In this document: positions 4,474-63,662 of the stretch, one piece after another
Position numbering within the stretch: the stretch's first letter is position 1
Layout: the number at the start of each line of letters is the position of its first letter
Assembly: GCA_902521955.1 (NCBI GenBank)
Contig: CABYTP010000001.1
Span: 18,097 to 82,096 of the forward strand
DNA: 64,000 bases
Direction: 5' to 3'
DNA from: an uncultured Candidatus Actinomarina sp.
GTDB taxonomy: Bacteria > Actinomycetota > Acidimicrobiia > Actinomarinales > Actinomarinaceae
Notes under the pieces: generated by a model
What the model saw: the letters and a program-made list of their open reading frames with translations, nothing else
What the model was told of the DNA's origin: nothing
The model's database searches: none
Translations under genes and position numbers: made by a program

Positions 4474-7062
4474 ATGAAGTTGCTTACAAACTTTTTTAGT
4501 TCGGCTGCTACTAAGCGTCCAGTAGTCACAATTTTAGTAGTCCTTCTTTTAACTGGTTTTTTTGGATTTATGGCAGGACAAGCTGAAGAGTTAAGTACTA
4601 GCTTTGGTGGAGAACTAGATACACCTGAAATACAAGCATCTTCAAAACTTGGTGAATACTTTCAAACCTCCGGTTCCCAATCTGTATTTCAAATTATTGT
4701 AAGTGGTGAAGATGTACTCACTGTAGATGGCTATACAGCCTGGCAGGAAATTAATAAAGCAGTTCTGCAAAGTGAAATTTATCCTTATTTAGTAAAAGAT
4801 CAAGGGGGAGCGGTACAAGGCTTTTTCGCACCTGTTGATTTTGCAAAAGCATTTAATCCAACTTTAAATGTTAGTGCTATGTCAGATGAACAGTTTAAAC
4901 AGCTTTATAATCAAGCTAATGGACAAATGCCTCCTGAGTTTAAAGCGTTTGCTGCAGCTCTTTTATCCTCAACTTATGATGAAGATGCGACTACAGCTTC
5001 TGCAGGTTTAGCAATTGTGACTATTGATAGTTCATTAATAGCCCAAGAATTTGGTGGTTCTGATGGAGCATTTATCGAACAACCACGTATGGAAGTTGCT
5101 CTTTCTGAAGCACTATCTGAAATTTCAATAGGAGATATTAAAGTGTCTGGCTTTTCCTTTGGTCTTTTATTAGGTAACGAAGGCGATGACTTTCTTGCTG
5201 AGATTGGTCTATTATTTGGACAAGCATTCTTAATCATTCTTGTTGTACTTGCATATATATTTTTTATAAGACCAAGAAAAGGTTTTGGAATTCTTAAATC
5301 TGGACGAAGAACATTTAGTGATTTGCTACTAAGTCTTGGAGCAATACTACTTTCTATTGGCTGGATGCAGGGTGCAGGTACGATACTTGGACCCGGTTAT
5401 TTGGATATCATAGGTGCTCCTAACCAAGTTTCACAAATTGCTCCTATTATTTTAATCGGCCTCGGTGTTGATTATGCAATTCACTTTACATCTAGATATA
5501 GGGAAGAAATAGGTTCAGGAAATTCTATAGTTGGCTCTACATCATCAACACTTAAGTCTGTTGGTATCGCACTTACACTTGCTACGCTTGCAACAATTGT
5601 AGGATTCTTAACAAATATTGTTTCCCCGCTTCCAGAATTAAAAGATTTTGGAATTTTAGTTTCAACCGGTATATTTTTTGCTTTCTTTTTAGTTATGACT
5701 TTTGTTCCTGCTATCAGGACATTATTAGATAAAAGAGCTGAATCAAAGGGAAATATCAGTACTGAAGCTTTTTCATCATCTGGAGAGAGTGTACTAAACA
5801 AAATTGCTGCATCCAGTGGAATTATTCCAAAGAAGCTCAAATTAGTTGCCCTAGCATTATTAATTGGAATTTCAGGTTATGGGTATTTTAGCTTTACTAA
5901 CTTAGAGACAATTTTTGAATTTACAGATTTTCTTCCTGAGGATGATCCAGTTGTACAAACCTTAGACCTATTAACCGAAGAGTTTGGTGGTGGGTTTGGA
6001 GAGACTACAAGTGTACTAATTGAGGGTGATAACCTTGCAACACCAGATGTACATAATGCTCTTATTGAGTCAATTAATAATTTAAGCGATAAAGAAAATA
6101 TAGTAGTTTATGCAGGTAATGTGGCTGCTGAGTCTGTAATTGGCACAGTCGGACAGCTATTAGCTCCTCAAGGAGCAGCTCCTGGTGCACCACCAGCGAT
6201 GCCTGATATGGAAGTTTTGGGCGCCCTTGGTTCATACGGTGTTGATTTAATGTCTGGCTCTCAAGGTATTGATGCTTTAAGGGTTAAAGACTCAGGAGAT
6301 GTTCAAGGACTTTATGAGTATCTTGTTAGTTCTGATCCGGAAGCATTTTTAGCAAACCTATATTTCAATGAAGAAAATTTAGTAACTGCTCAACAAGTTA
6401 GAATAACAACTTCAGCTGGTTCTTTAGGAGCTGCACAATTAAGAGATGACATATATGATGCCTTTATTCCACTATCTTCACTAGGAGTAGATATTGCTGC
6501 AACAAATGATGCTATTGTAACTCAGAGTGTAAGTGACTTAATTTCAGAGTCACAATTCCAATCATTAATCTTTGCCATTCTAGCTTCAATGACTTTCTTA
6601 ATTCTTTACTACTTAATTGATATTAGAAAACCATTTCTTGGGGTAATTACTATTCTTCCAGTAGTAGCTATAGTAATGGGAACTTATTTAGGTATGTATT
6701 TTCTTGAAATACCTTTAAATCCTGTAACATCAACGCTATCAGGGTTAGCTATTGGTATAGGTGTGCCTTTCGTAATTCATGTTACTAATAGATTTAGAGA
6801 AACTCTTTTGACTTCACCAAATCCAGTTGAAGCAGTGAAAACTACATTAAAAACAACAGGTGGTTCACTATTTGGATCAGCATTCACAACCATGGCTGGT
6901 TTTGGTATTTTGATGACCTCATCATTAAAACCATTTCAACAAATGGGCCAAGTTGTTGTTGTAGCTCTTGGTTTTGCCTTAGTGGCATCTATCCTAATTT
7001 TGCCTACATTATTAGTATTTTGGGCTAATTATCACAATAAAAAAACCGCTAAATCTTTATAG
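4474..7062 (+). CDS. MMPL/RND-superfamily membrane transporter
   Basis: About 860 aa with two blocks of hydrophobic TM clusters separated by large soluble loops, the MMPL architecture. I prefer the ATG at 4474 (MKLLTNFF) because GGAGA sits 7 nt upstream; the ORF track begins at 4426. Confidence 0.7.
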   Translation: MKLLTNFFSSAATKRPVVTILVVLLLTGFFGFMAGQAEELSTSFGGELDTPEIQASSKLGEYFQTSGSQSVFQIIVSGEDVLTVDGYTAWQEINKAVLQSEIYPYLVKDQGGAVQGFFAPVDFAKAFNPTLNVSAMSDEQFKQLYNQANGQMPPEFKAFAAALLSSTYDEDATTASAGLAIVTIDSSLIAQEFGGSDGAFIEQPRMEVALSEALSEISIGDIKVSGFSFGLLLGNEGDDFLAEIGLLFGQAFLIILVVLAYIFFIRPRKGFGILKSGRRTFSDLLLSLGAILLSIGWMQGAGTILGPGYLDIIGAPNQVSQIAPIILIGLGVDYAIHFTSRYREEIGSGNSIVGSTSSTLKSVGIALTLATLATIVGFLTNIVSPLPELKDFGILVSTGIFFAFFLVMTFVPAIRTLLDKRAESKGNISTEAFSSSGESVLNKIAASSGIIPKKLKLVALALLIGISGYGYFSFTNLETIFEFTDFLPEDDPVVQTLDLLTEEFGGGFGETTSVLIEGDNLATPDVHNALIESINNLSDKENIVVYAGNVAAESVIGTVGQLLAPQGAAPGAPPAMPDMEVLGALGSYGVDLMSGSQGIDALRVKDSGDVQGLYEYLVSSDPEAFLANLYFNEENLVTAQQVRITTSAGSLGAAQLRDDIYDAFIPLSSLGVDIAATNDAIVTQSVSDLISESQFQSLIFAILASMTFLILYYLIDIRKPFLGVITILPVVAIVMGTYLGMYFLEIPLNPVTSTLSGLAIGIGVPFVIHVTNRFRETLLTSPNPVEAVKTTLKTTGGSLFGSAFTTMAGFGILMTSSLKPFQQMGQVVVVALGFALVASILILPTLLVFWANYHNKKTAKSL

Positions 7063-11162: not shown

Positions 11163-11190
11163 CCCATAAAGAGGCACCCGAGTTTTTGTG
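11163..11190. terminator. GC-rich hairpin GGGTGCC-N9-GGCACCC immediately 3' of rnpB; a T5 run follows on the plus strand
   Basis: 7-bp perfect stem seen directly in the sequence. On the minus strand it abuts the rnpB 3' end and may act as a processing or termination hairpin. The T-run exists only on the plus strand, where there is no upstream plus-strand gene. Confidence 0.4.
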
Positions 11191-11515
11191 AAACTATAAG
11201 CCGGATTCTGTATACGAAAAACGTATGATAATCATCCATCTTGTGTAATTGTTACCAAATACATCTAGCTACTTACCCGCAATTATTAACCGAGCAGGCT
11301 AATTGCTTCTTAGTATTGCTCCAAGAGGGGTTTACAAGCTAATTTGATTACTCAAATTACTGGTGGTCTCTTACACCACCTTTTCACCCTTACTTATTTT
11401 CATAAGCGGTTTGTTTTCTGTTGCACTATCCGTCAATTACTTGCCTGGGAGTTACCCAGCTCTTTGCTCTGTGGAGTCCGGACTTTCCTCGATAAATCGC
11501 GATTATCCGTTTCAC
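11188..11515 (-). ncRNA. rnpB: RNase P RNA (bacterial type A, compact)
   Basis: On the minus strand: the P4 5' strand GAGGAAAGUCCGGACUCC, GGGUGAAAAGGUGGUGUAAGAGACCACC matching the consensus GGGUGAAA.GGUGCGGUAAGAGCGCACC, the 3' consensus ACAGAAUCCGGCUUAU, and a perfect 7-bp P1 between GUGAAAC at the 5' end and GUUUCAC at the 3' end. Confidence 0.85.
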
Positions 11516-11537
11516 ATACTTAGTTTACATAGTAAAT

Positions 11538-12020
11538 TTATTCATTTGAATAAGAAATTATTATTTCCTGCAGATTGTCTAAAGATAGGGGACCTATGAA
11601 TTTTTTGATGATTTGATTATTTAATAATATATGTGTTTCAGGTACTCCAAATACACCAGAGTAAATTGCCATCTTGCTTTCTGGGTCAGTTACATAATTG
11701 ATTTCACCTCTTCCATACTGATTAATAAAATCAATAGCATTTTCCTTTGAGTCTTGAAATGATACGAAATAAACTTGGTTTTCAAATCCCTTGGTTTGAG
11801 AAAGTTGAATTAGGTACTGGTGTTCTTCTATACATTCCAAGCACCAAGATGCCCAATAATTAATTATTGTGTAATTACTAGAATTAATATTAATAATTTC
11901 ACTTGTTTCAAGATTTTCTAGATTATTTAAAATATTTTTATCAACTTCTATAATATTTGTTGTTGCACTAGAACTACAAGATATAAAGATTAAAAATGAT
12001 ATAAGAAGTTTAATTTTCAT
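11538..12020 (-). CDS. ccmG: Thioredoxin-fold thiol:disulfide oxidoreductase (CcmG/TlpA/ResA-like)
   Basis: N-terminal signal peptide and a WASWCLEC CxxC motif. It is the last gene of the ccm string. Confidence 0.75.
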   Translation of the reverse strand: MKIKLLISFLIFISCSSSATTNIIEVDKNILNNLENLETSEIININSSNYTIINYWASWCLECIEEHQYLIQLSQTKGFENQVYFVSFQDSKENAIDFINQYGRGEINYVTDPESKMAIYSGVFGVPETHILLNNQIIKKFIGPLSLDNLQEIIISYSNE

Positions 12021-12546
12021 AAATTACAAGTATTTCATTAATTATTTTTAAATCATCTTCAGGTAATGAAGGGTTACTTTTTAAAGATTCTAATATTTTG
12101 ATTCCTTCACTCCTGGTATCAGGATTCTGAACATATATGATTCCTTTATAGGTACTTCCTAAAAGGGATCTAGGAGATAGCCTTACAGCTTCATTTATGT
12201 AACTCATTGAGGTCAACTCATCTCCAGACTCATATACCATCCATCCTATTTGTGCAAGTGAGTAACTTTTCAAATCTATGTCATTGGTATTTTCGGCAAC
12301 ATACATAAAGTGAATTAAAGCATTGGAGTAGTCATAAGATTCAAAATACCTATTAGCTAGAGCTATTCTCATAGGTAAAATATCAGGATTTAATTTAATT
12401 ACCTGCTCCATTTCTTCATTAGTTACATTTGAAAGATCTGTTGATTGACTGGACGAAATAGAAGAATTGTTATCTAAATTAAAATAAAGAAATATGGGAA
12501 AAATTAAAATAAAGACTCCTGAATAAAACCATTTATTTTTTAACAT
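12010..12546 (-). CDS. TPR-repeat protein, probably the CcmI/CcmH C-terminal-domain-like apocytochrome chaperone
   Basis: N-terminal TM segment followed by TPR-like repeats. Positioned between ccmH and ccmG. Confidence 0.5.
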   Translation of the reverse strand: MLKNKWFYSGVFILIFPIFLYFNLDNNSSISSSQSTDLSNVTNEEMEQVIKLNPDILPMRIALANRYFESYDYSNALIHFMYVAENTNDIDLKSYSLAQIGWMVYESGDELTSMSYINEAVRLSPRSLLGSTYKGIIYVQNPDTRSEGIKILESLKSNPSLPEDDLKIINEILVIYEN

Positions 12547-12892
12547 ATAGTTTCCTTATAAAAATTAATATAAAAATTAGAACTATAGATATTGGCACAA
12601 TCAGTATTTCAGTGTTATTAGTTATTGGATTTGTTATTATTCTCTCTCCGTAGCGCTCAACCCAGAATGTATTTATTTCACCATCTGTTAATCCGTTGTC
12701 TATTTGTTCTTTTAAAATAGATTTCATATCATCTGCGTACTCTGACGGTGAATCATATATAGTCTCACCCTGACATACTGGGCACAGTAAAATTTTGCTC
12801 CAATTTTCTAATCTTGATTCGTTACTCGGAGATATTAACGGCATTGAAATAATTATTACTACCAGAACAAAAGTTATGTATCTAGACTTCAT
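12533..12892 (-). CDS. ccmH: Cytochrome c-type biogenesis protein CcmH (CycL)
   Basis: LLCPVCQGE (the LRCxxC-type motif), a signal peptide and a C-terminal TM segment. Confidence 0.8.
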   Translation of the reverse strand: MKSRYITFVLVVIIISMPLISPSNESRLENWSKILLCPVCQGETIYDSPSEYADDMKSILKEQIDNGLTDGEINTFWVERYGERIITNPITNNTEILIVPISIVLIFILIFIRKLYVKK

Positions 12893-14777
12893 TTTTTCTT
12901 AACCTCGGAAAGAATGAAAGACTTGTTATAAGTAGACCTATCCACATAATTAGAACCCCGTAATTATTTCTAACTATTAACTTGTAGCTATCTTCATTAA
13001 TGAACTTAACAGTTATATAAATATCATTAATAATTGATCTAAATACCGCAGGTGAACTGATTGCTTGTTGAGATGAATTTTTAAATATATTTAAAGAAGT
13101 ATATTTTGTCTGTTTTGAATTTGAAATTGGTAATTTAAGTACATTTTTTTCAGGGAGACTTTCCTCAATTGTGTCATATACAAAATAAGTTTCGTTATTA
13201 AAGTTAAATTCTTGAAAAGAATTTAACTCTTTTTCAATGGAGAAGCTTTGACTAACATTTAAAATTATTCCAAGTGCAAAGATACCTATTCCTAGATGAG
13301 CAATTTGCCCAGTCCAATAGGAGCTACTTCCCTTAGGAACCCTAAAGTTCTTGTAAAAATTTCTTAAAGTCGTAAAAATTAATATAAAAGAAAATGAAAC
13401 TGTAATGATTAGAATGTATGAATTATTTAATAGTAACAATGTAAAAATAGTCACTATTAGTGCAATGTTAATTAAAATTACATTATCGTTAAGCCATTTT
13501 TGAATATTTAAATTTCTGATTGATAGTTTTACAGAAAAAATCATTAGCCCTAAAAGAATAAGCAGTAGGGGACCTACAAGAATATCATAATAGGCTCTTC
13601 CAACAGTAATTTGTCTACTGTAAAGAGTTTCGTAAATTAGTGGAAATATTGTTCCAATAAAAATTACAAGTGCAGATGAAAATAAGAAAATATTGTTGTA
13701 AACAAAAAATCCTGATTTACCAAACCAGTTGTCAATTTTTTTTGATTTTGAAAAGTATTCAATATTTTTTGATCCTATTGCAATGAAAATTAATCCAAAT
13801 AAAAGCATTCCAAATAACAGATACGTTCCAATATTTCCATTAGAGAATGCGTGAACCGATATAAGTACTCCTGATCGAGTTATAAAAGTTCCAAATAATG
13901 TAGACAAAAACATTAAACCCACAAGAATATAGTTCCAATTCAACAAAGTGTTTTGTGTTTTTTGAATTTTAGCTGAATGAAGAAATGCTGTAGCAAGTAA
14001 CCAGGGGATAAATGATACATTTTCAACTGGATCCCAGGCCCAATAACCTCCCCACCCTAGAACTTCATAAGACCAAGCTGCGCCAAGAGTTATTCCAATA
14101 GTTAAAAACAACCATGGAACATAGGTTGTTTTTTCTGCGACTTCAATCCATGTATTTGAATCCTCTTTTTTTGAATAAAGCCTGCTCGTAGCAGCAACAA
14201 AAGGCATTGTCATGCCGACATATCCTATATAAAGCATTGGAGGGTGAATAGCCATTAGGGGATGATTTTGTAATAAAGGGTTCGGTCCGCGACCAATATT
14301 ACTTGTAACTACTTCTGCAAAAGGAATGATGGTTGAAGCACTGCATCCGATGGTTGCAAGCTCTATACAACCGGCAAAGGGAGATGAACTAAAAACTGTA
14401 TATCCAACAAAAAATATCATAATAAGAGTAAAAATTTTAATATCAATATTTGAAGATGGATCTTTATAAAATTTTAAATAAAAATACATAAATAAACTTA
14501 AACAAAGATTCCACAGTAATATAGATCCATCCAACGATCCCCAAAGCGAAGCAAATTTATATAAAGGTGGAGTAGATTTTGCAGAATAATTAGCAATATA
14601 AGATAGAGAGAAGTCATTTAAAAATAATCCAATCTCAAGTAGGCAAAATAAGAAAACCTGGATAAAGAGATTAATTCTTACAAGTATTTCCGTATATAGA
14701 TTTTTTTTGTTAAAGAATAAAAATATTAACAGACCCAAACTGATCCAACTAAAAATAATTCCAGTATTATAAATCAT
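12882..14777 (-). CDS. ccmF: Cytochrome c-type biogenesis protein CcmF (heme lyase subunit)
   Basis: 631 aa and polytopic, with the WWD motif WGGYWAWDPVEN. Confidence 0.9.
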   Translation of the reverse strand: MIYNTGIIFSWISLGLLIFLFFNKKNLYTEILVRINLFIQVFLFCLLEIGLFLNDFSLSYIANYSAKSTPPLYKFASLWGSLDGSILLWNLCLSLFMYFYLKFYKDPSSNIDIKIFTLIMIFFVGYTVFSSSPFAGCIELATIGCSASTIIPFAEVVTSNIGRGPNPLLQNHPLMAIHPPMLYIGYVGMTMPFVAATSRLYSKKEDSNTWIEVAEKTTYVPWLFLTIGITLGAAWSYEVLGWGGYWAWDPVENVSFIPWLLATAFLHSAKIQKTQNTLLNWNYILVGLMFLSTLFGTFITRSGVLISVHAFSNGNIGTYLLFGMLLFGLIFIAIGSKNIEYFSKSKKIDNWFGKSGFFVYNNIFLFSSALVIFIGTIFPLIYETLYSRQITVGRAYYDILVGPLLLILLGLMIFSVKLSIRNLNIQKWLNDNVILINIALIVTIFTLLLLNNSYILIITVSFSFILIFTTLRNFYKNFRVPKGSSSYWTGQIAHLGIGIFALGIILNVSQSFSIEKELNSFQEFNFNNETYFVYDTIEESLPEKNVLKLPISNSKQTKYTSLNIFKNSSQQAISSPAVFRSIINDIYITVKFINEDSYKLIVRNNYGVLIMWIGLLITSLSFFPRLRKNEV

Positions 14778-15175
14778 TTTGAATAACTTTTAACATCATA
14801 TGTTTCACCGTCACTTGAGACATATTCGTTATCATGTTTTACCAACATATCATCTGCAAAAAATATATCATTATCTAATACACCATCAAGAATTACACCC
14901 ATATTTTCTTGAAATAAATCTGGTATAAATCCATCAAATATTATCTCTATTTCTTTATTACCATCTGTTATTGTAAAAACTGTAAATCCATCATCTTGAG
15001 TAATAGAATCCTCCACTACAAATCCACCTAATTTAATTCTTTCATTAGCGGTTATTTCTATATCTTCAGTTTCTGATGTAGTGTAGAAATAGATGGTATT
15101 TTTAGAAGCAATTACGGTACTTGCATAAATAATAAGTCCAATGCCCAAAAGGACAATAATAAAATTTTTTTTCAC
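14774..15175 (-). CDS. ccmE: Cytochrome c-type biogenesis protein CcmE (heme chaperone)
   Basis: N-terminal TM anchor and the C-terminal motif LVKHDNEYV, which corresponds to the heme-binding LAKHDEKYxPPE region with the conserved His. Confidence 0.85.
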   Translation of the reverse strand: MKKNFIIVLLGIGLIIYASTVIASKNTIYFYTTSETEDIEITANERIKLGGFVVEDSITQDDGFTVFTITDGNKEIEIIFDGFIPDLFQENMGVILDGVLDNDIFFADDMLVKHDNEYVSSDGETYDVKSYSK

Positions 15176-15180
15176 TCTAT

Positions 15181-15849
15181 TTAAATTTTAGCTCTTGATT
15201 TAGGATTTAAATAGTCGTCCCATAATATATCGTTAGATATTCGGAATCTTTTTGTGAGGAATACATGAACAAGAGTTACCAGTAGAACACTTATTAAAAG
15301 AGTTACAAGGATATCTGTAGACATAGGAGCATCTCCCGATGCAACAGTTTCTTGACTTAAGATACTTGCCTGTTGGTGGACAGATCGCCACCAAATTACA
15401 CTAAAGTGCAATATAGGAATCTGTATCACGCCAAAAATACCGATAAAGGACGAATTCTTTGCTGTTTTAGCTAAGTCTTTATTAAACTGCCTTGAGGCAA
15501 TGTATCCAAAATAAACTAGCAAGAGTATAGCTGTTAAGTTGAGCCTTGCATCACCCCAAACCCACCATGTTCCCCATGTTTGTTTTCCCCAATAAGATCC
15601 TGCTAATAAAGTAACAACGGTAAAGAGGACACCAGATTTTGCATTTGCTACAGCTAGTGAGTCATATTTTTGTTTTTTTGTAAAAAAGTACAACACAGAG
15701 TAAATAAATGTAAGAGTGTATCCTAAATAAGCAACCCAAACTGTGGGTACATGTATATATAAAAGTTTTGAATAGATACCTTGTGTCACGTCATAAGGTC
15801 CAAAAAAAGAAATTACAAGCCAGACTGCTAAAGGTCCATAAAGCATCAT
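15181..15849 (-). CDS. ccmC: Heme exporter protein CcmC
   Basis: WWD motif WGTWWVWGDARL and about six TM segments. Confidence 0.85.
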   Translation of the reverse strand: MMLYGPLAVWLVISFFGPYDVTQGIYSKLLYIHVPTVWVAYLGYTLTFIYSVLYFFTKKQKYDSLAVANAKSGVLFTVVTLLAGSYWGKQTWGTWWVWGDARLNLTAILLLVYFGYIASRQFNKDLAKTAKNSSFIGIFGVIQIPILHFSVIWWRSVHQQASILSQETVASGDAPMSTDILVTLLISVLLVTLVHVFLTKRFRISNDILWDDYLNPKSRAKI

Positions 15850-16481
15850 TTCGTACTCCTTAAATAAAAGTTAGTAAAAGCATAAATAACTAAAGTTATG
15901 CCTAAATACATTACTAAGTAAATATTACTTATTTCTTGATTTACACCTAACCATAGGGGAGCGATTAATATTGCAAAACCAATATATATTGGAACAATTA
16001 TTGTGAATTGAACAAAACGATTATTAAAACTTGTAAATACTTGAAAAAAAAGATTTATCATAATTGCATTTATGCAAAAGAACAAGACAGAAACGCATAT
16101 ATTGACTAAAGATGTATTCAATGATGTATTTGTGAATCCAGAAAATAGAATTAGTAAAAGAATGATTTGTGGATAAAATATTCCTAATTCCGCAATGGTT
16201 TTACTGTAGAAATAATCTGTTTTCTTTATTGATCCAAAATTTAACTCTTTTACTAATCTTTGCTCATCTAGTGGATTTCTTATTGAAAAAAGAGTAGTAA
16301 ATAAAATCAGAAACAAAAGCTCTACTATCAAAAATAAGTCATCGTCTACACGGAATCTATTTTCTGACAAAATTGGAAAAACAATTATTAGAACAGACAT
16401 CGTAGGGGTAATTAAAAATAAAGAGGTGTTATTTCTAAATTCCAAACTAGTTTCTTTTTTAATAATGTATTTTCTAATCAT
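15846..16481 (-). CDS. ccmB: Heme exporter permease CcmB
   Basis: 211-aa polytopic membrane protein. ATGA-type overlaps with both ccmA and ccmC. Its position between ccmA and ccmC supports the call. Confidence 0.7.
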   Translation of the reverse strand: MIRKYIIKKETSLEFRNNTSLFLITPTMSVLIIVFPILSENRFRVDDDLFLIVELLFLILFTTLFSIRNPLDEQRLVKELNFGSIKKTDYFYSKTIAELGIFYPQIILLLILFSGFTNTSLNTSLVNICVSVLFFCINAIMINLFFQVFTSFNNRFVQFTIIVPIYIGFAILIAPLWLGVNQEISNIYLVMYLGITLVIYAFTNFYLRSTK

Positions 16482-17067
16482 TTAAATCAATAGTTCTTTC
16501 AATACTGATTAGTGAGTTTATGCTTTCTTGACTTGAAAGAATTGAAGAATTTCCGTCAGACTCTCTTTTTTTAAGTAACTCTAATAAAAGTTGAATTCCG
16601 TTTTCATCGAGATAAACTTTCGGTTCATCAATGCAAAGGACATCAGGATTTTTCAAATCCGCTATTGCTATTTCACTTCTTTTAGTCATTCCACTTGAAA
16701 AGTCTTCAATTAAGTCACCTTTAAAATTTATAAGTTCATATTTTGTAAGGATTTTATCTATCAAATCTTGTTTTAAATTTTGTTTGTACAAAAAATAATT
16801 TATATTCTCAATTAAAGAAAGCTTTGGAATCAGAGAAGAAACTGCGCCAATTTCTATTAACGAATTGTTTATTCTTTTTATATCTGAATTAAAAATATTA
16901 CCAATAAAATTATTACTAATACACATTAGAAGAGTTGTCTTCCCAGAACCATTTTTTCCTATAATCTCATAGTTTTTAGAAGCTTCTAGTGAAATCTTTA
17001 GATTACTAATGACTACTTGATTGCCGTAACCTAGTTCAAGATTGCTCGATTCGAAAAAAGAACTCAT
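16474..17067 (-). CDS. ccmA: Heme exporter ATP-binding protein CcmA (ABC ATPase)
   Basis: Walker A GKNGSGKTTLL, ABC signature LSSGMTKR, Walker B LCIDEP. Confidence 0.85.
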   Translation of the reverse strand: MSSFFESSNLELGYGNQVVISNLKISLEASKNYEIIGKNGSGKTTLLMCISNNFIGNIFNSDIKRINNSLIEIGAVSSLIPKLSLIENINYFLYKQNLKQDLIDKILTKYELINFKGDLIEDFSSGMTKRSEIAIADLKNPDVLCIDEPKVYLDENGIQLLLELLKKRESDGNSSILSSQESINSLISIERTIDLND

Positions 17068-18560
17068 ATTCCTATTGTATTAGGTTCTTGATTTCTTATA
17101 AAACGTAAAATTAGATGAAGTTCGTTATAGTAGACAACTTCATCATTTTGTTTAACTACTAGATTGGAGAAAGATTTACTTTCAATTTTAATGTTTTTAT
17201 TTTCAATATTTATATTTAAATCATTTAAGATTTTGAGAATTTGAGAATCTTTATTACTAATTAAATTTTCCATTTTTCTTAAATAATCAAATTCATCTAA
17301 TAAAGAATAATAATTGATAAATTTTTGAGCATTTTCAAATTCAAGATTATCTGAGTAGACCCGTACCTCATCTTTGATTTTTTTAATGTAGTTGGTTAGC
17401 TCATTAAAAAATAATTCAATTTGTTCATTTAACCTTCCTATGTACAAGTTAATATTGAACGATTCTACGCAAGAACAAGGAGTATCTTTGAGTATTGAAA
17501 TATCACATTTTTCTTTTCTTGAGTTATTTTTTTTACAATCAATCAGGTTTAGTAAATCATTTAACATGATTTTAAAATTATTAGCTTTTGAATAACTCAA
17601 AAATGGTCCAATTTTAAACAATGTATTTGAAGTATCTTTTATTTTTGAAATTTCTAAATTAGTTTTATTATTTTTAAGTTTTATCCAGTAAATATTTTTT
17701 GAAAATTTTCCTCTCCTATTAAATTTTGGATTGTATTGATTTATAATTCTTTGCTCAACAATTAATGCAGTTATTTCATTGTCTAGTTGTTCGTATAATA
17801 ACTTATTTGAAGCATTTACAATTTTGTTTGATTTGAAAGATCGAGAAAAGCTTAAATGTGAACTTAATCTATTTTTTAAATTTTTTGATTTTCCAACATA
17901 TTGTATTTTTTCATCTTTTAAGAATAAATAAACCCCTGGGTTGGATGGAATTTCTTTAATTTTATATTTATCTTTTAATTTTTTATCTATTCCCATTATG
18001 TAGTCATTTAGGTCTTTAACAGTATCTATACCTGCAATGCTTTTTTCTTTAAGAAGGTTTTGCAGCACCTCATAAGTTGTTAATACATCTGCTTTTGCAT
18101 TATGTTCATTTTTATTATGGGTTTTGTAAAAATAACTTAATGTCTGAAGTTTATGGTTTTTAATTTTTCCCCTGAGTAAAGCCCTTGAGAGTTTGAGTGT
18201 ATCAAGTCTCTCATTTTGAAGTTTTTCAATTTTTTTTTCCTTCAAAGCGGAATTTAGAAAAGATAAATCAAAATTTAAATTATGACCAATGACTATTGTA
18301 TTTCTTAAAAAGTCATTAATTTTTTTTATCTCGCTTTCAATTTTTGGTGAATTTTTTAAATGCCACTCATATATTCCCGTTAGTTTTGAAATGAATAAAG
18401 GCAACTCTCCATCTGGTTTGAATTTTGAATAATATTCATCAATTATTTTATTTTCTCTAAATTTAATCATATATATTTCAATGATCTCACTGTTATGGGG
18501 ACTTATGCCTGTTGTTTCAATATCCAGAACTACTAATGTATTGTCTTTAAAAACTTTCAA
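17064..18560 (-). CDS. DnaQ-like 3'-5' exonuclease fused to a GIY-YIG nuclease domain (Rv2191/Cho-like)
   Basis: Exo I VLDIETTG, Exo II GHNLNFDLSFL, Exo III H-x4-D (HNAKAD). A GIY-YIG domain follows: PGVYLF...IQYVGKS...R...E...N. Overlaps ccmA by 4 nt. Confidence 0.8.
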   Translation of the reverse strand: MKVFKDNTLVVLDIETTGISPHNSEIIEIYMIKFRENKIIDEYYSKFKPDGELPLFISKLTGIYEWHLKNSPKIESEIKKINDFLRNTIVIGHNLNFDLSFLNSALKEKKIEKLQNERLDTLKLSRALLRGKIKNHKLQTLSYFYKTHNKNEHNAKADVLTTYEVLQNLLKEKSIAGIDTVKDLNDYIMGIDKKLKDKYKIKEIPSNPGVYLFLKDEKIQYVGKSKNLKNRLSSHLSFSRSFKSNKIVNASNKLLYEQLDNEITALIVEQRIINQYNPKFNRRGKFSKNIYWIKLKNNKTNLEISKIKDTSNTLFKIGPFLSYSKANNFKIMLNDLLNLIDCKKNNSRKEKCDISILKDTPCSCVESFNINLYIGRLNEQIELFFNELTNYIKKIKDEVRVYSDNLEFENAQKFINYYSLLDEFDYLRKMENLISNKDSQILKILNDLNINIENKNIKIESKSFSNLVVKQNDEVVYYNELHLILRFIRNQEPNTIGI

Positions 18561-19352: not shown

Positions 19353-19938
19353 TATGTATCAATTTTTTTTTCTGAATTTTATCAGGCGACTTCATATTTG
19401 TTTTCTTTTCTACTCCAGCAGTAATCATTCCAATTATTAGATAGTCTTGTGGAATATTTAGTAATTTATGAAAGCTTTTTCTATTGGTATTATGAAGACC
19501 CATAAAACCACTTGAAAGCTTCTTTTCTTCCAGTAGTAACATGCAGTTCATCATTGCAGCTCCAGCATCAATAAACCAATATGGAACATCCCAGTCATTT
19601 GAATTGACTGCCTTTTCTTTGTCGCCTTTTGAGTATCGTTCATGGTAAGCATTTTCATTTAAAACTATAAAAAATAAAGCTACGGAGTGGGATATCCAAG
19701 GACTTTTACCTTGTTCTGTAAATTTTTTCTCATTGAGTAAATTTGATATATTCTCAATTGTATTTTTATTAAAAACCTGCACAACTTCAATGCCACGAGA
19801 AAATCCTGCCGTTGGAATTTTTATAATATAATTAGATATTTTGTCTAAAGAATTTTTATCAAAGTTAACTTTTTTATAATTTCTTACTATTTTTCTACTT
19901 GATAAAAGACTTTCTAAATAAGTTTCAGTATTACTCAT
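19333..19938 (-). CDS. Nitroreductase-family protein
   Basis: N-terminal LLSSRKIVRNY (an RRSxRxF-like motif) and a central PYWFIDAGAAMMNCMLL. Confidence 0.65.
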   Translation of the reverse strand: MSNTETYLESLLSSRKIVRNYKKVNFDKNSLDKISNYIIKIPTAGFSRGIEVVQVFNKNTIENISNLLNEKKFTEQGKSPWISHSVALFFIVLNENAYHERYSKGDKEKAVNSNDWDVPYWFIDAGAAMMNCMLLLEEKKLSSGFMGLHNTNRKSFHKLLNIPQDYLIIGMITAGVEKKTNMKSPDKIQKKKLIHNEKFSK

Positions 19939-20998
19939 TTTTACTTAGTAAAGAATTTAAAACCACATCACCAACTTCACTTGTGCTCATACCCATTTTT
20001 CCTGCAGAAAGAGATTCTAAGCTTATTGCTGTTTTTATAATTGCATTTTCAATATCTTTAGAATATTGTTCCTCACCTAATTCTTTAATCATCATCGCAG
20101 CAGCACCTATACACGCTAGGGGATTAATCACATTTTTGTCAGTATATTTTGGGGCAGACCCACCAATAGGTTCAAACATTGACACTCCTTCAGGATTGAT
20201 ATTACCTCCAGCTGCTATTCCCATACCACCTTGAATCATTGCACCGAGATCAGTTATTATATCTCCAAACATATTATCTGTAACAATTACATCAAACCAT
20301 TCCGGGTTCTTAACCATCCACATACAAATAGCATCAACATGTCCATAATCTGTCTCTATGTTTGGATAATCTTCAGCTACTTCATAAAATATTCTTTCCC
20401 AAAGGTCATGAGCATATGTTAAAACATTAGTTTTAGCACAGAGTGTGACCTTTTTTCTATTATTATTTTTTGCATATTCAAATGCATATTTTATACATCT
20501 GTGAATTGCAAAATATGTATTGATAGACTCTTGGGTTGCTACTTCATTTTTTGTACCGTAGTGAATATATCCGCCTGCGCCAGCATAAAGACCTTCTGTA
20601 TTTTCACGAACTACAATAAAATTAATATCCTCAGGAGTTTTATTTGCTAAAGGTGTTTCCACACCTGGATATAAAACAACAGGTCTTAAGTTTATATACT
20701 GATCAAACTCTTTTCTTAACTTTAATAAGATACCTTGCTCAAGTATTCCAGGTTTTACATCAGGATGTCCTATTGCACCAAGTAAAACTGCATCTGCATT
20801 TTTAAACTGTTGTATATCATTTTCTGTAACAAGTGTTTCAGTTTTAATATATCGGTCTCCACCTAAGTCATTTTCTGAAAAGTTAAACTCTACTCCATAT
20901 TTTTTTTGAGATCCCTCTAAGACTTTGACCGCTTCCCTCACAACCTCTGGGCCTGTACCATCACCAGCTAATAGTGCTATATTTAATTTTTTACTCAT
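19931..20998 (-). CDS. leuB: 3-isopropylmalate dehydrogenase
   Basis: Isocitrate/isopropylmalate dehydrogenase motifs [20 protein letters not shown]. Adjacent to and overlapping leuA. Confidence 0.85.
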
Positions 20999-22485
20999 TT
21001 GTTCAACGCATTCAAAAAGGACTCTACTGATCCCTGTACCACATCAGTGGACACAGCTCGACCTTGTTTCATGAGGTGGCCATCATTAATAATTGTTACA
21101 ATTTCAGCTGTAGCGTCGGATCCTTTAGTTATACTTTCAACTCTATAGTCAATAAGTGTTGCCTCAGATTTAAGTATTTTTTTAACAGCGGTAAAAGCAG
21201 CATGAATCATTCCATCTCCTGTAGCTTCTTCAGTCATCTCTTTATCTCCAACCTTAAGCGTCACTTTAGCAGATGCATATTCATCCTTACTATTAACAGA
21301 TACAGATAAAAGTTTTGTATTACTTTGGTTTGTTTCTACTTGACCAACAATTGCTCTTAATTCATTTTCAACTATTTCACCTTTTCTATCAGCTATTTTC
21401 TTAAAAGTATTGAATGCATTGTCAAAGGAATCACTATCAAGTGTTATATTCAAGTTATCTAATGCATCTTTAAACCCAGCTCTTCCAGAATGTTTGCCAA
21501 GTATGATTTTTGCTTCTTGCCCCACAGAGTCAGGAGACATAATTTCGTAAGTTGAAGTATTTCTAAGATATCCATGCTGATGTATGCCCGATTCATGACT
21601 AAATGCATTTTTACCAACTACTGCCTTATTGAACTGGACTGGATATCCAGTCAATTTAGATACAAGACGTGATGTTTCGAATATTTCAGTTGTCTCAGCT
21701 TTGATATCAACACCAAATTGATCTTGCCTTGTTTTCACTGCCATAATTATTTCCTCTGTTGAGGTATTACCAGCTCTTTCTCCAATTCCATTAATTGCAC
21801 CCTCTATTTGTCGCGCACCTGCGGTTATAGCTGTAAGTGAATTAGCTACCGCCAATCCTAAATCATTATGGCAATGAGTGGAAATAACTACATCTTCATT
21901 TCCACCTTTTACTTGTTCATATACCTGGGTTAAAAGTTCTAAGTAGTCTTGAGGAGTAGCATATCCAACTGTATCCGGAACATTAATAGTTGTTGCACCT
22001 TCTTCAACTGCAGTTTTAAGGACTTCAATCAAAAAATCCTTGTCTGTCCTAGTGGCGTCTTGAGCTGAGAATTCCACATCTTCACAAAGTTTTTTGGCAT
22101 ATTTAACAGATTCTTTAGTGTCCTTTAGAATCTCATCCTTACTTTTTCTAAGCATATGCTCCATATGTATTTCAGAAGTAGATGTAAATACATGAATTCT
22201 TGAATCTTTTGCAACTTTAATTGCTTCCCAAGCTTGCTCAATATCATCCGGATGACATCTTGCAAGGGAAGCTATTGTTGAATTTTTAATATTTTGTGCA
22301 ATTAGATTTACCCCTTCCCAATCTCCAGGAGATGATGCAGCAAAACCAGCTTCAATAACATCAACTTTTAATTTTTCCAACTGTTGAGCAATTAATAGTT
22401 TCTCTGATGGCGTTAAAGCTATACCTGGACTTTGCTCTCCATCTCTAAGAGTCGTATCGAAAATTACTAACTTATCATTACTCAT
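20995..22485 (-). CDS. leuA: 2-isopropylmalate synthase (LeuA/CimA family)
   Basis: N-terminal [20 protein letters not shown]-like barrel. 496 aa including the C-terminal regulatory domain. It is flanked by ilvC and leuB. Confidence 0.8.
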
Positions 22486-23498
22486 TTATCTTTAGCTACA
22501 TCCTTTGCATCAAGAAAGGGCATCATATCTCTTAAGCTTTTTCCTATCTCTTCTATTTGATGCTTAGAAGCTTCTTCTCTTTTCTCTTTAAGAAAAGGAG
22601 ATCCTTCTCTTGCTTGTGACATCCATTCTTTTGCAAATGCCCCAGATTGAATTTCATCTAAAACTTTTTTCATTTCTTTTTTTGTATCACTATTGATAAT
22701 CCGAGAACCTCTTGAAAAATCACCGTATTCGGCTGTATCAGAAATAGAATGTCTCATCCATTCAAATCCTCCCTCGTACATTAGGTCAACTATAAGTTTT
22801 ACTTCATGCAATGTTTCAAAATATGCACTTTCAGGTTGATATCCAGCTTCAACCAAAGTTTCAAATCCATTCTTTATTAGCTCTGTTAAGCCTCCGCATA
22901 AAACAACCTGTTCACCAAATAAATCTGTTTCAGTCTCTTCTTTAAAAGTAGTATTTAAAATTCCAGCTCTTCCACCTCCAATAGCAGAAGCATATGAAAG
23001 TGCAATTTCTTGAGTGTTGCCAGAAGTATCTTTATCAACAGCAACTAGACATGGCATACCACTGCCTTCAGAATAAGTTCTCCTTAATAAGTGACCAGGT
23101 CCTTTTGGAGCAACCATTGCAACAGATAGATCTTCCCTTGGTTCAATCTCATTAAAGTGAATGTTGAATCCATGTGCAAACAATAAGGTAGAACCTTCTT
23201 TCATATGTTGAGCTACATCAGAGTTGTAGACATCTGCCATAACTTGATCGGGGAGAAGCAACATTACAACATCAGAATCTTTGGTGGCATTCTCAAGACT
23301 TGCAACACTTAGGCCCATTTCTTCTGCTCTTTCAAAAGAGGATGAATCTTCTCTTAATCCAACTGTTACATTTACTCCTGATTCATGAAGGTTTAATGCA
23401 TGAGCGTGACCTTGACTTCCAAATCCAATAACTGCAACTTTTAAATTTTTTATTAAGTCTTGATTAATTGATGAGTCATAAATTATTTTTGTTTCCAT
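22482..23498 (-). CDS. ilvC: Ketol-acid reductoisomerase
   Basis: N-terminal Rossmann [13 protein letters not shown] followed by the C-terminal knotted domain. Confidence 0.9.
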
Positions 23499-23507
23499 TT
23501 TCTCTCC

Positions 23508-23981
23508 TTATAGATTTGATTGTATTGCTATTCTTCCGCCTCTTACCATTTCTATTATTCCAAATGGTTTCATTAATTTTTCAAATTTATTTAACTCTTT
23601 AGACGATCCTGTCATTTCGAAAATCGCATAATCTTGACCCACGTCAACAGATTTTGCACTAGATAAATTTGCTTTTTCAATCACAGAAGTTTGGGTATCT
23701 TTATTTATTGACACTTTAAGTAAGAGTACTTCAGTTTCAATTGTCATTTCTGGATCCAGCTCAACTATTTTTATAACATTAACCAATTTATTAAGTTGTT
23801 TTTTAACTTGCTCAACTGCATCTAGTTCAGTAACTATTGTCATTTTAGATCTACCTTCAATATGGGTTGGACCTACAGATAATGAGTTAATATTGAAACC
23901 TCTTCTTGAGATTGTTGAAGATACCCTTGCAAGCACGCCAGGCTTGTCTTCTACTAAAACAGATAATATCCTTTCACTCAT
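23508..23981 (-). CDS. ilvN: Acetolactate synthase small (regulatory) subunit
   Basis: ACT-domain start ILSVLVEDKPGVLARVSS. 157 aa. Overlaps ilvB. Confidence 0.9.
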   Translation of the reverse strand: MSERILSVLVEDKPGVLARVSSTISRRGFNINSLSVGPTHIEGRSKMTIVTELDAVEQVKKQLNKLVNVIKIVELDPEMTIETEVLLLKVSINKDTQTSVIEKANLSSAKSVDVGQDYAIFEMTGSSKELNKFEKLMKPFGIIEMVRGGRIAIQSNL

Positions 23982-25690: not shown

Positions 25691-25713
25691 AATATAAAGT
25701 TTCTTCCTCTTAT

Positions 25714-25766
25714 TAAAAAAAAACCCCCCGTTTTGGGAGGCGCTCATCACAGCAAAATGAGCGCTA
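25714..25766 (-). promoter_or_regulatory. Transcription attenuator: hairpin GCGCTCAT-N9-ATGAGCGC followed by an intrinsic terminator CCTCCC-AAAAC-GGGGGG-T9
   Basis: Seen directly on the minus strand between the leader-peptide stop and the ilvB start codon. A 9-T run follows the G/C stem. Confidence 0.6.
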
Positions 25767-25814
25767 AATAAGTAATAGCACCAATACTGAAATGAATACA
25801 GCTAAATTTTTCAT
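25764..25814 (-). CDS. ilv leader peptide MKNLAVFISVLVLLLI (16 aa; 11 of 16 residues are Val/Leu/Ile)
   Basis: Read directly from the minus strand: ATG AAA AAT TTA GCT GTA TTC ATT TCA GTA TTG GTG CTA TTA CTT ATT TAG. It lies immediately 5' of a hairpin and terminator, upstream of ilvB. Confidence 0.6.
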   Translation of the reverse strand: MKNLAVFISVLVLLLI

Positions 25815-25843
25815 TAAAATAACTATAGTAAAAGCTTAGAAAA

Positions 25844-26938: not shown

Positions 26939-26961
26939 ATTAAATAATCTATCCTTATTCT

Positions 26962-36330: not shown

Positions 36331-36843
36331 ATGGAAAAATTTCTTAGCCACCGCACATTAATTTTGAATTCAACTTTTCAGCCACTTTCTGTTGTATCAT
36401 ATCGAAGAGCAGTTTCACTTATGTTAAACAAAAAAATTCATTCGCTTGAAGACTCAAAAATAGTTTTTAAATCAGAAAAAACTAAAATAAATTTACCAAA
36501 TGTTGCCCTTTTAAATTATTTTGTTAATGCTCCATACTCTAGAAGAGTTGCTTTAAATAAAGAGAATATTTTTATTAGAGATTTTCACACTTGTCAATAT
36601 TGTGGGGGTGTAGCAGAGTCTGTTGATCACATTATTCCAAAATCAAAAGGAGGAGAACACATTTGGAGTAATGTAGTAGCTTGTTGCAAAAAATGTAATC
36701 TCATTAAAGCTGATAAAGATTTGCTAAATACAAGGCTTAAATTAATTAAAACACCAGAGCATCCTGTTGGTGCATTTTGGGTAAAAACCATAGTCGGTTC
36801 TAATCCTGATCCTTCATGGAGTAAATATCTAAAGTCAGCTTAA
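36331..36843 (+). CDS. HNH endonuclease-domain protein
   Basis: CQYCGG...DHIIPKSKGG...N...CCKKCN HNH zinc-finger motif. Confidence 0.75.
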   Translation: MEKFLSHRTLILNSTFQPLSVVSYRRAVSLMLNKKIHSLEDSKIVFKSEKTKINLPNVALLNYFVNAPYSRRVALNKENIFIRDFHTCQYCGGVAESVDHIIPKSKGGEHIWSNVVACCKKCNLIKADKDLLNTRLKLIKTPEHPVGAFWVKTIVGSNPDPSWSKYLKSA

Positions 36844-62954: not shown

Positions 62955-63662
62955 ATGGAACTAAACATATTCATTGCATTCTTTTTTGGCATTTTGTCTT
63001 TTTTCTCTCCTTGTGTTTTACCATTAGTGCCAGGGTTTCTTTCTGTGTTTTCCTTAAATAAAAACGATACTAAAACAAGACTTTTAGGATCTTTTCAATT
63101 TGTAATTGGTTTTTCTTTTGTGTTTATTTCACTGGGTGCATTAGCCTCAACGCTTGGTTCTTTTTTCACAAGAAATGCATCAGTATTATCAAGAGTTAGT
63201 GGAGCAGTAATTATTATATTTGGAATAATTCTCTTGGTTCCCTCTTTAAATAATAAATATTTTTATAGTTCAAACATTATTCATGTAGAAAAATATACAA
63301 AATTAAAAAACTTCATTATGGGATTTACTTTTGGTTTTGGGTTCACACCTTGCATTGGACCTGTTTTGGGGGCTCTTTTGACACTGTCTTCCAGTGCTGA
63401 AACTGTAAATCTAGGAATTGTATATCTATTGTTTTTTTCAACTGGCATGGGTATACCATTTTTAACACTTGCATTTTTATCAAACAAGATAAGTATAAAA
63501 AATTCTTTATTTAAAAATTTTCAAAAATTCTCTACAAAAATATCCGGCAGTACATTAGTAATTATCGGTGCTCTTATTTATTCCGACAAGATGTATTTAT
63601 TAGCATCTATTTTTCAAGATATTTTATATTTCTTTAACTTAGATTGGTTGAGTACAATTTAA
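62955..63662 (+). CDS. ccdA: CcdA/DsbD-family transmembrane thiol:disulfide electron transporter
   Basis: Conserved Cys in TM1 (FFSPCVLPLVPGF) and TM4 (FTPCIGPVLGALL), with six TM segments. Confidence 0.8.
   Translation: MELNIFIAFFFGILSFFSPCVLPLVPGFLSVFSLNKNDTKTRLLGSFQFVIGFSFVFISLGALASTLGSFFTRNASVLSRVSGAVIIIFGIILLVPSLNNKYFYSSNIIHVEKYTKLKNFIMGFTFGFGFTPCIGPVLGALLTLSSSAETVNLGIVYLLFFSTGMGIPFLTLAFLSNKISIKNSLFKNFQKFSTKISGSTLVIIGALIYSDKMYLLASIFQDILYFFNLDWLSTI

Follow-up and report, generated by a model that had tools for sequence, protein, structure and literature searches.

Gene Inventory and Genomic Context

An intact System I (Ccm) cytochrome c maturation operon is present in Candidatus Actinomarina (order Actinomarinales, class Acidimicrobiia; GC content approximately 30%), encoded by eight minus-strand open reading frames (ORFs) at positions 11538 to 17067 of the 64,000-nucleotide stretch of DNA analyzed here (the window). 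We consider it probable, at roughly 80%, that this is a functional and chromosomally native operon which was inherited within the Acidimicrobiia and trimmed in the Actinomarinales. Re-reading of the open reading frames placed all eight genes exactly where a first-pass annotation had proposed a complete System I cluster, and comparison with Pfam and NCBIfam models identified six of the eight products by family match and motif. The assignments of CcmB and CcmI are weaker than that annotation had it, the models giving no match for the former and weak generic ones for the latter; position and comparison with relatives support both identities. The genes of the cluster, its upstream neighbor and the gene of a potential electron conduit are as follows.

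17064..18560, minus strand: DEDD exonuclease/GIY-YIG gene (PF00929 and PF01541, NF005907)
16474..17067, minus strand: ccmA, ABC ATPase (PF00005, E 4.6e-18; CcmA models among the NCBIfam matches)
15846..16481, minus strand: ccmB-like permease, very divergent, 211 aa (position and comparison with relatives)
15181..15849, minus strand: ccmC, WWD-domain protein loading heme onto CcmE (TIGR01191, E 7.9e-43; PF01578)
14774..15175, minus strand: ccmE, membrane-anchored heme chaperone (PF03100, E 4.4e-22; NF009727, E 9.3e-30)
12882..14777, minus strand: ccmF, heme lyase with WWD domain (PF01578 and PF16327; 6ZMQ, E 2.3e-70)
12533..12892, minus strand: ccmH, thiol-disulfide partner of CcmF (PF03918, E 5.5e-20)
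12010..12546, minus strand: CcmI-like TPR protein (position and comparison with relatives; weak generic TPR matches)
11538..12020, minus strand: ccmG/dsbE, thioredoxin-fold apocytochrome reductase (TIGR00385, E 2.6e-22; PF08534)
62955..63662, plus strand: ccdA, membrane electron conduit (PF02683, E 4.5e-17)

Neighboring ORFs of the cluster overlap by 4–14 nt, with the exception of ccmC and ccmE, which are separated by a 5 nt spacer (15176–15180), and the genes are translationally coupled. The heme-handling and thiol residues are all intact across the cluster. The DEDD/GIY-YIG exonuclease gene, which overlaps ccmA by 4 nt, lies outside the Ccm system and is a synteny marker common to other Acidimicrobiia. 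The actinobacterial host proposed earlier was borne out by CcmF, which shares 96–100% identity with proteins bearing the name Candidatus Actinomarina or Actinomarinales, and by the presence in the window of mraZ, rsmH, ftsI, ftsZ, lspA, a pseudouridine synthase and an F420-type LLM enzyme.

Heme-Handling and Thiol-Disulfide Components

CcmC contains the motif WGTWWVWGD, and the alignment columns of His33 and His158 are conserved; it scored above the gathering score of PF01578 and below the curated value of TIGR01191 (146.5 vs. 186 bits). CcmE has the canonical H114-x3-Y118 arrangement within the motif KHDNEY, its His and Tyr being invariant in 54 aligned sequences. Four histidines of CcmF (H178, H267, H309, and H494) are invariant in 80/80 sequences, and residues 6–449 aligned with the closest solved structure, that of Thermus thermophilus CcmF (6ZMQ), in which the WWD loop and the histidines of the aligned region match residue for residue while the C-terminal third is divergent. 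The label of the ccmF gene at NCBI is ‘CcsA’.

CcmH, which exceeded the gathering score of PF03918, has the motif LLCPVCQ and a C-terminal membrane helix. The CcmI-like protein is shortened to one membrane helix and a TPR domain; orthologous ORFs occupy the equivalent position in relatives, where the proteins give weak TIGR03142 matches, and in three loci (L004, L011, and L031) this ORF is joined to CcmH in a single protein, an arrangement known from E. coli CcmH. The orthologs have in common the motif VTNEEME.VI..NPD...MR.ALA.RYFE. The presence of NrfE and NrfF models among the NCBIfam matches would be consistent with the ccmF, ccmH and TPR genes encoding not the general lyase but one of NrfEFG type that serves a CxxCK nitrite reductase specifically; however, the scores are far under the Nrf cut-offs (283 vs. 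927 bits and 46 vs. 159), the three genes share one operon with ccmABCE and ccmG, and neither NrfA nor a CxxCK ORF was detected in the window, which makes such a function extremely improbable.

Regarding the supply of reductant, CcmG contains the motifs WCLEC and GVFGVPET, with a score below the curated cut-off of TIGR00385 (DsbE). Its N-terminus, as read from the sequence, is a lipoprotein-type signal with the lipobox LIFISC, and CcmG appears to be lipoprotein-anchored. The gene at 62955–63662, from which reductant for CcmG had been suggested to come, was confirmed as ccdA, and CcmG probably does receive its reductant from CcdA. The ccdA gene, unlinked in Actinomarina, is located close to the ccm cluster in five actinobacterial relatives (L019, L025, L047, L058, and L075). 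The ORFs flanking ccdA were read as an endonuclease III-like ORF and, downstream, a non-ResB ORF. Neither ResB/CcsB nor CcsA/ResC was seen within the 64 kb window, and CcmC and CcmF were the only PF01578 proteins among approximately 35 window ORFs scanned.

CcmA, CcmB and the Absence of ccmD

CcmA has the Walker A motif (GKNGSGKTT), the signature, the Walker B motif (VLCIDEP) and the catalytic Glu. Its scores against TIGR01189 and NF010061 (E ~1e-19) were under the curated cut-offs, its best NCBIfam match was a lantibiotic-protection ABC subunit and not a CcmA model, and searching the PDB with the CcmA profile yielded nothing but generic ABC ATPases. Alignment with relatives revealed replacement of the H-loop His by Gln (ILSSQES) in all three Actinomarinales sequences, and this position is Leu in L081, a divergent low-GC relative. 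The H-loop His is normally required for ATP hydrolysis, and therefore the release step may work differently or poorly with Gln at this site.

The CcmB-like ORF did not match any Pfam or NCBIfam model, including PF03379, and gave no match in a PDB profile search, while its positional equivalent in relatives does match PF03379 CcmB. In hhalign comparisons the probability was 3% with a profile of three sequences; with a profile of six it was 43% (E 2.5e-4), and the match was in register. An AlphaFold2 model built on a shallow alignment (pLDDT 54.8) has an N-terminal elbow helix and six long helices, which fits the CcmB pattern; Foldseek matches of this model to GPCRs and other unrelated helical proteins were set aside, the model being too poor. 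Across 1.84 billion representative proteins, an exhaustive HMMER search turned up just 26 relatives, one of them (P0257) distant, full-length and encoded on a 1.1 kb contig. Sources name the gene ‘hypothetical protein.’

Taken together, the lack of a family match and of a functional name for CcmB, its few relatives, the equal or better scores of CcmA against other ABC families (the lantibiotic-protection subunit being the best), the lost H-loop His and the missing ccmD could indicate that CcmAB are decaying or repurposed, with a reduced CcmC-E-F-H core at work and the two upstream genes encoding a different ABC exporter. However, both genes are found at the exact ccmA and ccmB positions in translational coupling with ccmC, and they agree with CcmAB in length, in helix pattern and in the N-terminal motif of CcmB. 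Furthermore, CcmA and CcmB are kept at 47–60% identity across Actinomarinales genera, with full-length ORFs in many contigs, indicating purifying selection and not decay. The 120 best matches of CcmF and of CcmB in marine metagenomes were 82–100% and 80–99% identical, respectively, many of them full-length, and such near-identical copies show that the genes are maintained. Decay or repurposing is thus unlikely, and CcmA and CcmB probably form the ABC module of the operon.

That ccmD is absent from the window, as the first-pass annotation had it, was confirmed by the short ccmC/ccmE spacer, the place where ccmD is located in 50 of 53 relatives, and by an HMM built from the CcmD-like ORFs of 50 relatives, which found nothing in the window or in two single-cell genomes of other Actinomarinales, L001 and L002 (best E 8.4). 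The positive controls L019 and L006, both among the training sequences of this HMM, gave 1e-15 and 7e-13. In E. coli, the small CcmD protein has been described as essential (PMC10457321).

Distribution, Synteny and Origin

Regarding the distribution of System I, 52 of the 80 best CcmF loci from species-representative genomes were labeled Actinomycetota, mostly Acidimicrobiia, in a motif-biased sample of loci containing either the exact motif WGGYWAWD or one of five query-specific patterns. System I was thus found to be common and vertically inherited in this clade, an outcome which the first-pass annotation had itself named as speaking against its reading, and its premise that Actinobacteria use System II applies to the model Actinomycetes but not to the Acidimicrobiia. 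Being widespread in the Acidimicrobiia, System I is therefore an inherited class-level trait and not a foreign insertion. L001 and L002 contain the ccm operon with the same flanks at 47–84% amino-acid identity, and because the arrangement recurs in these two independent single-cell genomes, an assembly or binning artefact was rejected. The order A-B-C-(D)-E-F-H-CcmI-G is common to approximately 25 loci of Acidimicrobiia and other Actinomycetota, and the exonuclease gene upstream of ccmA is also present in L023, L031, and L037 and, less closely, in L052.

The textbook distribution (PMC13170271, PMC3601427), which assigns Gram-negatives to System I, and Gram-positives and mycobacteria to System II, would favor a horizontal transfer from a Gram-negative donor into the Actinomarina lineage with replacement of System II, an acquisition of the kind raised earlier. 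Also compatible with such a transfer are a relative synonymous codon usage (RSCU) correlation of 0.96 for the ccm genes, slightly under that of control blocks (0.97–0.99), and CcmF-only neighbor-joining trees in which the Actinomarinales group with L055, labeled Burkholderiales. However, GC3 is native (0.21 vs. 0.197 ± 0.023 in the rest of the window), codon usage is close to native, and the cluster and its flanks are conserved across the order. Other Acidimicrobiia, including those of high GC content, have the gene order, the CcmI-like protein and the exonuclease gene upstream of ccmA in common with Actinomarina, and the best tblastn matches were all from Actinomycetota or unlabeled MAGs of that group. 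The grouping with L055 joins two long branches and was lost after Dayhoff recoding; because of this long-branch attraction, the CcmF-only trees leave the placement of the Actinomarinales unsettled. A Gram-negative donor for the Actinomarina lineage is accordingly very unlikely, and inheritance within the Acidimicrobiia is preferred. In a tree of CcmC, CcmE and CcmF with Dayhoff-6 recoding, the Actinomarinales were sister to the whole gene-order group in 119/200 bootstraps (60% support).

Inheritance within the class may have been preceded by one or two ancient transfers into early Acidimicrobiia followed by vertical descent, in which case the system would be native to Actinomarina and foreign to the phylum. 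There are two distinct actinobacterial CcmF clades with different gene orders (F-H-I-G and F-G-H), both of them represented in the Acidimicrobiia, and the F-G-H clade clusters near Gemmatimonadota; the F-H-I-G group of high-GC Acidimicrobiia (clade A) also takes in a few Actinomycetes (Tersicoccus, Amycolatopsis, Haloechinothrix), suggesting mobility within the phylum. Against this, the CcmF trees are distance-based and their sampling is limited and motif-biased, such that the direction of transfer is unreadable from them. We regard ancient transfer as a substantial possibility, short of even odds.

Comparison With Known Cytochrome c Maturation Systems

With System I of E. coli and Rhodobacter capsulatus, the Actinomarina cluster has in common an ABC ATPase, a permease, the WWD protein CcmC, the HxxxY CcmE, the four-His CcmF, the CxxC CcmH, a TPR protein of CcmI type and the thioredoxin-like CcmG, as well as the gene order ABC-E-F. 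It differs from these in having no ccmD, in the order F-H-I-G instead of F-G-H, in a CcmI consisting of one helix and TPR, in a CcmG that is apparently lipoprotein-anchored, in reductant expected from CcdA and not DsbD, in the H-loop Gln of CcmA, in a CcmB unrecognized by family models and in its monoderm host.

Clade A (represented by L006, L031, L019 [Tersicoccus], and L058 [Amycolatopsis]) likewise has the order F-H-CcmI-G, a CcmI-like protein with the conserved motif and, in three or four loci, the upstream DEDD/GIY-YIG gene. However, its members keep ccmD, the H-loop His and a Pfam-recognizable CcmB, have a longer CcmI with a cytoplasmic coiled-coil which is sometimes fused to CcmH, and have a GC content of 60–71% compared to 30% in Actinomarina. 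The best tblastn identities were to clade A, with 32–36% for CcmF and a maximum of 45% for CcmC.

System I*, a variant known from archaea and Desulfovibrio (Allen et al., 2006; summarized in PMC3601427 and PMC4429474), is a reduced form found outside the classical Gram-negative hosts, its archaeal version being given as CcmB, C, E, and F with no CcmD, and in being reduced and lacking such a host the Actinomarina system resembles it. Since the Actinomarina CcmE has His114 and CcmH is present, an assignment to System I* was rejected. System II (ResB/CcsB, ResC/CcsA, CcdA, and ResA; Mycobacterium, Corynebacterium, Bacillus) does the equivalent job in monoderm bacteria, and the likeness extends to CcdA as reductant conduit and to the WWD-family fold of CcsA (PMC9145763). 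In contrast to the Actinomarina cluster, System II has neither a CcmE chaperone nor an ABC module; ResB/CcsB was not seen in the window, where ccdA is not followed by resB or resC.

Proposed Mechanism

By analogy with the E. coli and Rhodobacter system, CcmC would put heme onto membrane-anchored CcmE at His114, and holo-CcmE would then be set free by the CcmA/CcmB ABC module. CcmF and CcmH would join the heme to the CxxCH of apocytochromes exported outside the cell membrane, which may be presented by the CcmI-like TPR protein. The putatively lipoprotein-anchored CcmG would hold the CxxCH cysteines reduced, with electrons predicted to come across the membrane via the unlinked CcdA. The likely substrate is diheme QcrC from the bc1 complex; no gene encoding a c-type cytochrome (CxxCH) was detected among the ORFs of the window. 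Streamlining in the Actinomarinales would have involved loss of ccmD, shortening of CcmI and divergence of CcmA and CcmB.

Going further, it could be proposed, as a tentative and rather doubtful extension, that the Actinomarinales run a naturally minimized System I with a His-type CcmE, no CcmD genome-wide, a CcmA homodimer with Gln for the H-loop His at both ATP sites and a remodeled CcmB. If true, holo-CcmE would be released without CcmD and with little or no canonical ATP hydrolysis, which would contradict what work on E. coli describes as essential. The retention of 5.5 kb of ccm genes by a genome of ~1 Mb would likewise agree with the idea that scarcity of heme or iron favors System I.

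Implications

Cytochrome c has been listed among the functions of aerobic life common to Candidatus Actinomarina and a freshwater acI genome (PMC3747508). In the literature library searched, there was no paper linking Acidimicrobiia with CcmF and nothing specific on System I in Acidimicrobiia or Actinomarinales, and the main Actinomarinales genome paper makes no mention of cytochromes or heme. The operon is an ordinary System I in a little-discussed host and not a new kind of system, and its relevance for the heme-trafficking field is moderate. The Acidimicrobiia include a group that ranks among the most abundant bacteria in the surface ocean, and for this class the textbook shortcut that Gram-positives and Actinobacteria use System II is untrue and is corrected here. 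Given the database names of CcmF and CcmB, the Ccm system may be overlooked or wrongly labeled when pathways are reconstructed for this clade. The trimmed form of the operon, with no ccmD, an H-loop Gln and a short CcmI, represents a natural experiment on which parts of the Ccm machinery are dispensable.

Composition of the ccm cluster

The eight minus-strand ORFs of a cytochrome c maturation (ccm) cluster described in the first-pass annotation were found precisely at 11538-17067. Adjacent ORFs overlap by 4-14 nt, with the exception of ccmC and ccmE, which are separated by 5 nt, and the gene upstream of ccmA overlaps ccmA by 4 nt; because of these overlaps the genes appear to form a single unit with coupled translation. 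Family assignment with Pfam and NCBIfam identified six of the eight genes.

Family assignments in the ccm cluster, and the gene upstream of ccmA (all on the minus strand)
CcmG/DsbE: TIGR00385, E 2.6e-22; motifs WCLEC and GVFGVPET
CcmH: PF03918, E 5.5e-20; motif LLCPVCQ
CcmF: PF01578 and PF16327
CcmE: PF03100, E 4.4e-22; motif KHDNEY
CcmC: TIGR01191, E 7.9e-43; motif WGTWWVWGD
16474-17067, CcmA-like ABC ATPase: PF00005; CcmA models at E about 1e-19, under their cut-offs
17064-18560, DEDD exonuclease fused to a GIY-YIG (UvrC/Cho-like) nuclease domain: 4-nt overlap with ccmA

CcmF matched the solved structure of Thermus CcmF (6ZMQ) with an E of 2.3e-70, and in alignments with 53-80 relatives all known heme ligands of CcmF (H178, H267, H309, and H494), CcmC (H33 and H158), and CcmE (H114 and Y118) were invariant. 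The cluster is thus a canonical System I with a His-type CcmE, which rules out the archaeal System I*, whose CcmE is of the Cys type. The N-terminus of CcmG reads as a lipoprotein-type signal (LIFISC), which would suit a monoderm cell.

Genomic context and potential partners

Regarding the host, the CcmF shares 96-100% identity with metagenomic proteins assigned by NCBI to Candidatus Actinomarina or Actinomarinales, and the window, with a GC content of about 30%, also encodes mraZ, rsmH, ftsI, ftsZ, lspA, a pseudouridine synthase, an F420-type LLM enzyme, and CcdA; CcmF identity and gene context together identify an actinobacterium of the class Acidimicrobiia, in line with the actinobacterial character first proposed. 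An apparent intergenic gap with spurious plus-strand ORFs is filled by the gene encoding the class A bacterial RNase P RNA (rnpB; 11181-11518; Rfam RF00010, 279 bits, E 4e-90), which, like ccmG, is on the minus strand and follows it at a distance of 19 nt downstream. The region 19931-28623 is a block of branched-chain amino acid biosynthesis genes, with minus-strand leuB, leuA, ilvC, ilvN, and ilvB followed by a 4Fe-4S protein gene and ilvD on the plus strand. Between 25750 and ccmG the minus strand is almost continuously occupied by genes, in keeping with a streamlined genome. Just upstream of mraZ, an ORF with an HNH endonuclease domain (36331-36843, plus strand) lies beside a MerR-family regulator.

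The ccdA gene (62955-63662) is flanked by ORFs that read as an endonuclease III-like protein and a protein other than ResB. CcdA would transfer electrons to CcmG, a route supported by five actinobacterial relatives in which ccdA and the ccm cluster are close together. Besides CcmC and CcmF, no WWD-family protein was detected among the window ORFs scanned, and no CxxCH motif was present in window ORFs of at least 60 aa, so that substrates are not visible within the window. Cytochrome c has been listed among the functions of aerobic life common to Ca. Actinomarina and a freshwater acI genome (Ghai et al., PMC3747508).

Putative divergent CcmB and putative shortened CcmI

The assignment of CcmB to the ORF at 15846-16481 (minus strand) held for its position, precisely between ccmA and ccmC, and failed for family models, with no Pfam or NCBIfam match even at E 10; PDB sequences gave no match either. 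Only 26 relatives were recovered when 1.84 billion representative proteins were searched exhaustively, and near-identical copies, including homologue P0123, are named 'hypothetical protein' at source. In relatives, the ORF in the same position matches the CcmB family PF03379, and profile-profile comparison gave an in-register alignment over the first 100 residues (E 2.5e-4, probability 43%). In the AlphaFold model, of low confidence (pLDDT 54.8), six long helices come after an N-terminal one, an arrangement also reported for CcmB of E. coli (PMC10457321). Matches from a fold search with this model were meaningless and were disregarded. The support for reading this ORF as a putative, divergent CcmB is indirect.

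Similarly, the ORF at 12010-12546 (minus strand) gave only weak, generic TPR matches of its own, and its reading as CcmI stands through its relatives: orthologues occupy the same slot and have a long motif in common (VTNEEME.VI..NPD...MR.ALA.RYFE), and a single ORF encodes both CcmH and the CcmI-like TPR protein at three Acidimicrobiia-type loci (L004 3435-4598, L011 9937-11139, and L031 10003-11004). It is therefore read as a putative shortened CcmI of one helix and TPR. The fusions resemble E. coli CcmH, itself a fusion of CcmH and CcmI (PMC3601427), an exception regarded in reviews as typical of a few gammaproteobacterial genera, e.g., Escherichia.

Absence of ccmD and alteration of CcmA

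An ORF of 34-67 aa encoding a single helix with a basic tail is present between ccmC and ccmE in 50 of the 53 related loci holding both genes; one of the 50 gave matches, weak and to the two CcmD models only. A CcmD HMM built from these ORFs, which recovered two of its own training loci as positive controls (1e-15 and 7e-13), found nothing in the window or in L001 and L002, loci from single-cell genomes of two other Actinomarinales (best E 8.4), where the ccmC-ccmE gap of 5-6 nt is too small for a gene. The absence of ccmD from the window and these two loci is thereby confirmed. In E. coli, CcmD is described as small but essential (PMC10457321) and needed for release of holo-CcmE (PMC10457321; PMC3601427).

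In the same three sequences the H-loop (switch) His of CcmA is replaced by Gln (ILSSQES; window 16474-17067, minus strand; L001 5659-6294; L002 about 5650-6290), and in L081 (2-406), a low-GC relative that is more divergent, by Leu, while about 40 of 45 other aligned relatives keep the His. Some of the exceptions are probably alignment shifts, since at least one of them, L019, has the His in a MAFFT alignment. These features suggest a trimmed System I, without ccmD and with a changed H-loop, a short CcmI, and a lipoprotein-type CcmG, in which the release of CcmE may dispense with CcmD and rely on an altered ATPase.

Probable inheritance of the cluster

Horizontal acquisition, raised as one explanation for a System I cluster in an actinobacterium, is not favored by composition or distribution. 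The GC3 of the cluster is 0.21 vs. 0.197 +/- 0.023 for other window genes, and its synonymous codon usage correlates with the rest at r = 0.96, near-native though slightly under the 0.97-0.99 of control blocks. Among the best 80 of 599 CcmF-encoding stretches in species-representative genomes, 52 are labelled Actinomycetota, mostly Acidimicrobiia, 13 Gemmatimonadota, 2 Deinococcales, and 8 other phyla, with 5 unlabelled. In tblastn with all window proteins, L001 and L002 matched the operon together with its flanks, the exonuclease gene upstream and the LLM gene downstream, at amino-acid identities of 47% (CcmA) to 84% (CcmC).

The window cluster is nearest to those of other Acidimicrobiia. The derived order F-H-CcmI-G is common to about 25 high-GC CcmF loci (tblastn), including Microthrixaceae, many Acidimicrobiia MAGs, and the Actinomycetes Tersicoccus, Amycolatopsis, and Haloechinothrix, and the DEDD/GIY-YIG exonuclease gene also lies upstream of ccmA in high-GC Acidimicrobiia (L023, L031, and L037 and, less closely, L052). 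This exonuclease-ccmA linkage is conserved without obvious functional reason. A second actinobacterial group with the order F-G-H (Iamia, Poriferisodalis, and many Acidimicrobiales) clusters near Gemmatimonadota.

Sequence trees on their own are weak evidence for placement: in neighbor-joining bootstraps of CcmF only, the long Actinomarinales branch joins another long branch, L055, and with Dayhoff-6 recoded CcmC, CcmE, and CcmF, 119 of 200 replicates place Actinomarinales as sister to the F-H-CcmI-G group as a whole. Synteny, distribution, and composition taken together favor inheritance within Acidimicrobiia, the outcome that the first-pass annotation had named as refuting its interpretation (System I common and vertically inherited in the clade). 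Transfer at an early, deeper point within the class is possible.

Two loci with other labels, L014 (Gemmatimonadales) and L012 (uncultured bacterium), are nested in the Acidimicrobiia-type CcmF clade, whose gene order they share, suggesting that a MAG was mis-binned or mislabelled, or that transfer took place. Complete clusters of this clade, including ccmD, are also present in the cultured Actinomycetes Tersicoccus phoenicis (L019), Amycolatopsis ultiminotia (L058), and Haloechinothrix sp. (L069), a class in which System II is expected, with ccdA adjacent in the first two; such organisms may have both systems, or may have received System I by transfer within the phylum.

Significance

Reviews assign System I to Gram-negatives, archaea, and plant mitochondria and System II to Gram-positives and mycobacteria (PMC9145763; PMC13170271; PMC3601427). 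No literature linking Acidimicrobiia with CcmF was found in the library searched, and the genome paper on Actinomarinales is silent on both cytochromes and heme. Automated pathway calls for the Actinomarina clade may mislead, because its CcmF (P0015 and P0034) has the NCBI name 'cytochrome c biogenesis protein CcsA', a System II name, and its CcmB homologue is a 'hypothetical protein'. The ccm genes of Actinomarina are real and slightly under-reported, yet represent a known kind of system inherited in the clade, of which the CcmD-less, H-loop-altered variant is the sole part that could exceed the ordinary.
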